Of a DNA stretch of 20,380 bases, positions 19,951 to 20,380 are shown piece by piece (the stretch's first letter is position 1; each line of letters starts with the position of its first letter). The notes beneath the pieces were generated by a model. It made no database searches. It worked only from the letters and a program-made list of their open reading frames with translations, and had not been told where the DNA came from. The stretch is from a virus. Lineage: Duplodnaviria; Heunggongvirae; Uroviricota; Caudoviricetes. The stretch lies in the IMG/VR virus record IMGVR_UViG_3300045988_001600, positions 1 to 20,380 of that record; one strand, written 5' to 3'. Made by a program: the position numbers and the translations under genes.

Positions 19951-20380
19951 TCATCAAGCCAGTCCGCCCACCACTGCATCATTTCTCTGCGCTTATCGTG
20001 GCAGATGCCTCACTATCACACGGTGATGGTTCATTACTGGTTTGCATAATGGATAGAGAACTGAGGATAAAAGATATCCCAAAACCCCAAAATCTCATCT
20101 TTAGAATTTGCAGAAAGGGAGGCGTGAACAAATACCTGCGCATGAAAACGGAACTAGTCCAGATGTGATATTTGTGGTGATCACATACATCATCAACGAT
20201 GCTCGTTATGGTGAGTTTGATGACTACCCGCTGAAGTGAAAATAGTGTTGTGTACCAAATTGCGTACCAAACTAAAATCACAAATCATGAAACCCTTGTT
20301 CATGGCGGTTCTCAGGGGTATTGCGCGTAATCGTGAAACAAAAAGGTAGATTGTTGCTTACCGTCATTCATCATTAGGTT

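Follow-up and report, generated by a model that had tools for sequence, protein, structure and literature searches.

Gene content and remnants at the right end of the window

The window, i.e. the whole stretch of 20,380 nucleotides of viral DNA that was analysed, is for the most part 95–97% identical to Sf6, HF4s, Gally and similar P22-like phages. Its right third presents the P22-like gene order tailspike, gtrC, gtrB and gtrA, and is followed by the features that are treated in this work:

15177–17039, plus strand: tailspike gene
17092–18519, minus strand: gtrC
18500–19429, minus strand: gtrB
19426–19788, minus strand: gtrA
19882–19953, unstranded: two strong hairpins by folding energy, at 19882–19917 (15-bp stem) and 19930–19953 (8-bp stem)
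19938–19997, minus strand: remnant of a second integrase gene, HF4s/Sf6-type (P4-like), the last 19 codons plus stop, with 19/19 residues shared with the C-terminal end of the HF4s integrase
19989–20239, plus strand: decayed umuD-like (HumD/peptidase S24) gene, residues 46–129 of the 129-aa gp28 of HK140
20177–20184, unstranded: 8-bp palindrome GTGATCAC, within the codons GTG ATC ACA (V-I-T) of the umuD-like remnant
20249–20271, plus strand: two direct copies of TG(T/C)GTACCAAA with starts 12 bp apart, the int-distal pair (P arm in lambda nomenclature) of putative arm-type sites
20326–20338, plus strand: 13-bp core (crossover or identity segment) CGTAATCGTGAAA of the phage 2851/Sf101 type, exact match
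20339–20380, minus strand: host DNA (B′ side) by identity to MG1655, comprising sbcB codons 1–12 and the 6 bases upstream of them

Two observations concern the genes to the left of these features. Just before the tailspike gene, a 97-aa ORF (14843–15136, minus strand) has an Arc/Mnt-like ribbon-helix-helix sequence, and an "Arc family DNA-binding protein" is found at its place in Escherichia coli strain LR-28. The viral record IMGVR_UViG_2718217869_000002 (L091) contains an exact 50-nt match to the gtrC of the window, out of register with the window and with another right end; one glucosylation gene seems to travel with different right-end modules.

Between 19789 and 20380 the ORF scan revealed no frame of more than 100 codons and none with a database-supported product. 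An earlier note on this DNA, made from its letters, had likewise seen no convincing gene here, and this is borne out, since the ORFs are all short and the two protein-like stretches are both remnants. One of the short ORFs, listed with 19 codons, begins as native sbcB and continues into phage DNA as far as a stop codon. The remainder of the arm consists of non-functional debris, namely the umuD-like pseudogene and what is left of the 3′ end of an older integrase gene.

The umuD-like remnant was detected by tblastn in two frames, with 64% and 56% identity and a combined E-value of 3e-19. It has one frameshift near 20069–20072 and one in-frame stop, and it shares its terminal stop with the intact gene. 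This gene is intact in HK140, where its protein belongs to Peptidase_S24 in Pfam; the Pfam search of the stitched remnant matched no family. At the same place in strain GPEC1292, RefSeq annotates a "HumD family translesion DNA polymerase" pseudogene. With a frameshift, an in-frame stop and no N-terminus (the first 45 residues are missing), the remnant was rejected as a functional umuD-like gene.

In the second remnant, the 19 codons occupy 19941–19997 and the stop codon 19938–19940 of the minus strand; they encode DKRREMMQWWADWLDEKVE, and the remainder of the integrase gene is gone. In HF4s the layout is gtrA, then 133 bp, then int.

The palindrome had been noted as a 10-bp sequence, TGTGATCACA, and this was a misreading: the actual sequence is GGTGATCACA (20176–20185), of which only the inner 8 bp are palindromic. 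A match with one mismatch was present in 53 of 100 shuffles, as expected by chance. The palindrome was thus discarded as a protein-binding site, being at chance level and derived from coding sequence.

Matches in phage records and E. coli genomes

In a megablast search of phage records, 19789–20380 presented 94–95% identity to the att regions of mEp234, HK544, HK140, phage 2851, Stx phage 1717 and several other Stx phages, which are labelled "prophage attachment site (type 2851)" or "duplication due to insertion of stx2c phage". The same search showed 89.6% DNA identity to the att arm of Sf101, a P22-like Shigella phage. Homology to most P22-like phages (HF4s, Gally, Sf6 and others) ends at window position 19998, and homology to the lambdoid and Stx phages of the 2851 att type begins at 19867.

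The 132-bp segment 19867–19998 is thus common to Sf6/HF4s-type P22-like phages and to lambdoid phages with the 2851-type att module. In the former it holds the integrase 3′ end and the spacer downstream of it; in the latter it is part of the att module. It looks like the crossover point at which one integration module was replaced by the other. The two hairpins lie in this segment, with a minimum free energy of −36.2 kcal/mol and a z-score of −5.6, and none of 200 shuffles folded as well. Over 19400–20380, Rfam searched with a permissive E-value returned nothing but a meaningless miRNA hit (E 0.63, with 20 bits where the gathering score is 140); the sigma-70 promoter scan returned no promoter-like site; and the terminator scan returned one terminator-like site, within gtrA, a yield not above chance expectation.

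Some part of 19789–20380 is matched in 5420 of 5426 complete E. coli genomes, and at least 80% of the stretch in 443 of them. The best match is strain LR-28, with 97.3% identity, in which the tailspike-gtrCBA order of the window recurs and is followed by about 790 bp free of genes and then by dacD. The gene dacD is the next one to the right of the junction in both LR-28 and GPEC1292, and in the relatives it begins 203 bp beyond the position that matches 20380. The earlier note would have taken the absence of int or a tRNA gene within a few kb as a refutation of an attachment site, which is wrong for a prophage junction: in the nearest relative, dacD follows on the right, the integrase gene sits at the other prophage end, beside the rest of sbcB, and no tRNA is involved.

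The LR-28 prophage (L011 20471–22201 and L003 1–278) is a deleted remnant of about 17 kb with truncated antitermination and DNA-transfer genes, in which attL, attR, gtrABC and the tailspike gene are all intact. A serotype-conversion cassette can therefore outlast the decay of its phage. The prophage of the window could also be defective, as its LR-28 relative is, and its attR would then be a disused fossil.

The right end as a prophage-host junction

We propose that window 19956–20380 is attR (P-O-B′ in lambda nomenclature), the place where a P22-like (Sf6/HF4s-like) serotype-converting prophage meets the host chromosome on its right side. This prophage carries a "phage 2851-type" integration module and is inserted in the 5′ end of sbcB, the E. 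coli gene for exonuclease I (ExoI). We regard this assignment as almost certain. The core CGTAATCGTGAAA has a single exact occurrence in the window, against 0.02 expected by chance. This sequence serves as the core in the attP of Sf101 and of phage 2851, as confirmed by the sequencing of a junction (PMC4159516), and the same 13 bp are annotated as the att core in the records of mEp234 and Stx2 phage 1717. Read on the minus strand, the core is TTT CAC GAT TAC G, corresponding to the sbcB codons F-H-D-Y. The earlier note had recognised neither a tRNA 3′ end nor a known core; it was right about the tRNA, for which ARAGORN gave no hit, and the core, which is present, could not have been recognised without a database.

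To the left of the core lies phage DNA and to the right host DNA. After aligning the window with attP (mEp234 and HK140), attB (MG1655), and attL and attR of phage 1717, identities were counted without gaps. The 86 bases to the left of the core are identical at 86/86 positions to the attP of mEp234 and HK140, versus 20/86 to attB, and the same arm is identical at 83/86 positions to the attR of phage 1717. The 42 bases to the right are identical at 42/42 positions to the attB of MG1655 (K-12), versus 23/42 to attP. Counting the core, window 20326–20380 is 100% identical to nucleotides −6 to +49 of the MG1655 sbcB, in reverse complement, with the sbcB ATG at 20374–20372 on the minus strand of the window. 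From this ATG a minus-strand ORF begins with the native sbcB start MMNDGKQQSTFLFHDY, crosses the core and enters phage DNA, where it ends with a total of 20 codons (MMNDGKQQSTFLFHDYAQYP).

Because its left flank is the phage arm and its right flank is host sbcB, the right end of the window is, as judged from these alignments, attR plus host DNA rather than attP. The choice between attP and attR plus host DNA, which had been left open, is decided by these flank identities, and the proximity of an attachment site, suspected earlier, is confirmed by the core with its phage left flank and host right flank.

The same evidence bears on the reading in which the stretch is the attP of a free phage genome, with int just past the end of the window as in the P22 map. 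The succession of gtrA and att is indeed that of P22-like phage maps, and mEp234 and HK140 have an identical left arm and core in their attP. The 42 bases to the right of the core, however, are chromosomal sbcB, which refutes a free-phage attP. Moreover, the matches to phage-form records (mEp234, EC.P3 and E212) end at window position 20355, and 20380 is reached only in prophage records with host DNA (Stx phage 1717 and others) and in E. coli chromosomes. We consider this reading hardly credible. An attachment site of the tRNA type, where the junction would carry a tRNA gene or the 3′ end of one, is practically excluded, even though thrW or argW is used by most P22-like serotype-converting phages (PMC4159516), as in P22 (thrW) and Sf6 (argW), and an Sf6/HF4s-type integrase remnant is present at 19938–19997. 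That second integrase is a stump of 19 codons only; the core and the host flank are sbcB coding sequence, with dacD as the next gene in the relatives; and no tRNA or tmRNA was found by ARAGORN in the whole window, nor any tRNA-like Rfam match in 19400–20380.

It is also very improbable that the stretch is functional in itself, either as a small protein (the umuD-like fragment or a short ORF) or as a structured regulatory RNA. The similarity to the intact UmuD-like gene at protein level, the "hypothetical protein" or "error-prone repair protein" annotated here in some phage records, and the strong hairpins nearby would speak for such a function. Against it, the umuD-like stretch lacks its first 45 residues, is frameshifted and interrupted by an in-frame stop, is a pseudogene in RefSeq and matches no Pfam family; no Rfam family was matched, and the hairpins at 19882–19953 lie outside the interval of the earlier note. 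With the attR reading, the annotation of the right end is settled: the sequence is from an integrated prophage and not from a free phage genome, its boundary is at 20326–20338, and what lies beyond is host DNA.

Arm-type repeats and the integrase

The direct repeat reported earlier, GTACCAAA-n4-GTACCAAA, is present at 20252–20259 and 20264–20271, and these are the sole exact copies of GTACCAAA in the 20.4-kb window. The second copy of the repeat starts 62 bp ahead of the core. Of 100 shuffles, 8 contained two or more copies of GTACCAAA somewhere; taken by itself, the pair is therefore weak evidence, and it is the five-copy pattern of full attP sites that gives it meaning. In the complete attP of mEp234, the motif TGYGTACCARA occurs five times in one orientation, at −301, −289, −50, −39 and −16 from the ATG of int, and the same five positions are found in Sf101 and HK140. 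The pair in the window represents the copies at −301 and −289; the triplet at −50, −39 and −16 lies directly before int; and in mEp234 the core is at −227. No exact copy of GTACCAAA beyond these five was found in the 6.5-kb mEp234 locus.

The conservation of these positions was analysed in 79 loci taken from IMG/VR, which contain relatives of the mEp234-type integrase with 100% to 50% identity. The proximal triplet, with its GTAC centre, is kept at −52/−49, −41/−38 and −17/−15 down to 53% Int identity. Among the diverged relatives, the distal pair is present in one attP only, that of locus L040 (attP form, Int 73% identical), where the motif is altered: the distal copies are GTACAAAA and GTACATAA, at −300 and −288, and the proximal copies are likewise altered, to GTACAAAG, GTACAGAA and GTACAGAA, at −49, −38 and −15. 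In this locus, as in the window, the second distal copy lies 62 bp from the core of the respective site, and the intervening sequence is unrelated.

The window starts in packaging and head genes and so does not extend to attL, and its cognate integrase was deduced from relatives. In the integrase of mEp234, an Arm-DNA-bind_3 domain (PF13356, E 8e-18, residues 4–85) stands ahead of the Phage_integrase catalytic domain. The five-copy pattern, the conserved positions in relatives of Int and this arm-binding domain together give good support to the repeats as putative arm-type integrase binding sites, as the earlier note had suggested for the pair. No IHF site was found between 20200 and 20380 with the consensus WATCAANNNNTTR and at most one mismatch; hence host bending proteins enter the model by assumption only.

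The other prophage end and the substitute sbcB start

At the other end of the LR-28 prophage, sbcB (474 aa, annotated as intact) is separated by 181 bp from the gene for a 392-aa tyrosine integrase, which is followed by a small HTH/AlpA-like gene. The N-terminus of SbcB is MTDTDKQPTFLFHDYETFG in this lysogen versus MMNDGKQQSTFLFHDYETFG in the native protein, which indicates that the phage arm beside int supplies a new start codon and N-terminal codons. This substitute 5′ end of sbcB consists of a start codon (ATG, GTG or TTG) and about 8 codons, located 212–216 nt upstream of int, and after integration it is in frame with "...TFLFHDYETFG" (L011 11480–11690, the attL of LR-28; loci L013–L056). 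A full-length ExoI ORF is thereby kept in lysogens, with 474 aa versus 475 aa in the native form. The substitute start is kept in every relative down to 59% Int identity, including sbcB junctions of other enterobacteria, and is absent in relatives with 57% Int identity or less. The core codons F-H-D-Y fall in the conserved exonuclease motif of ExoI, which would account for the stability of the target.

At attR, the stranded native sbcB start (window 20374–20312, minus strand) encodes a dead-end peptide of 20 aa, and its promoter is just outside the window. This native promoter points into the prophage, towards gtrABC. It is conceivable, though rather unlikely, that a phage-supplied promoter drives a hybrid ExoI in lysogens, and that lysogeny thus rewires the expression of ExoI and, through the native promoter left at attR, places the serotype-conversion operon under the influence of a host promoter.

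Proposed mechanism

The integrase, a heterobivalent tyrosine recombinase whose gene would lie beside attL at the opposite end of the prophage, would bind the TGYGTACCARA arm sites through its N-terminal arm-binding domain and the core through its catalytic domain. At integration, strand exchange would take place within the 13 bp common to attP and to codons 13–17 of sbcB. This would leave the native sbcB promoter and the first 16 codons at attR, as a dead-end ORF of 20 codons, while at attL the start codon and N-terminal codons given by the phage would preserve the full-length reading frame of ExoI. For excision, attR with its two arm sites would pair with attL. The AlpA-like protein encoded beside int is probably the excisionase, and host bending proteins are assumed to assist.

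Comparison with known systems

The sbcB attR junction is an already known feature and brings no new biology. The locus sbcB is one of the four standard insertion loci of Stx prophages in E. coli O157. The original paper on phage 2851 is that of Strauch et al. (2008); the core was reportedly published in that year, and it was published again in 2014. The map of two plus three arm sites and the conserved substitute sbcB start may be undescribed, as no description of them was found in a search outside of which the original phage 2851 report lies; both are useful details for work on the 2851-type integrase.

In lambda, the core of attP is flanked by the arm-type sites P1 and P2 on one side and P′1–P′3 on the other, which are bound by the N-terminal domain of Int. 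The attP considered here resembles that of lambda in its two int-distal and three int-proximal arm repeats, all of them unlike the core, and in an Int with an N-terminal arm-binding domain. It differs in the motif, TGYGTACCARA, and in the orientation of the putative sites, which is the same for all five copies. A further difference is that transcription of int leads away from attP and that the proximal putative sites lie over the start region of int.

The attP of P22 (thrW) and that of Sf6 (argW) occupy the same map position, directly after the O-antigen modification cassette (gtrABC or oac). Unlike in these phages, there is no tRNA target here; the integration module has been replaced by an sbcB-specific one, and a stump of the old-type integrase remains. 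A close parallel in arrangement is Sf101, a P22/Sf6-like phage of Shigella flexneri, in which the O-antigen modification cassette adjoins the same att module with the same 13-bp core, and whose integration at the 5′ end of sbcB was demonstrated by PCR and sequencing (PMC4159516). The two differ in the cassette, since Sf101 carries oacB (O-acetyltransferase) and the window gtrABC, and in the form of the site, which is attP in the Sf101 record and attR in the window.

With the Stx2c phage 2851 group (1717, mEp234, HK544 and HK140), the window shares the core, a phage arm that is identical or nearly so, the sbcB target and the host flank. The members of that group are lambdoid siphoviruses or Stx phages, whereas here the module is joined to a P22-like virion and gtrABC set. 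The 2851 module on a P22-like gtrABC prophage thus adds to the cases in which an integration module has passed from one type of phage to another.
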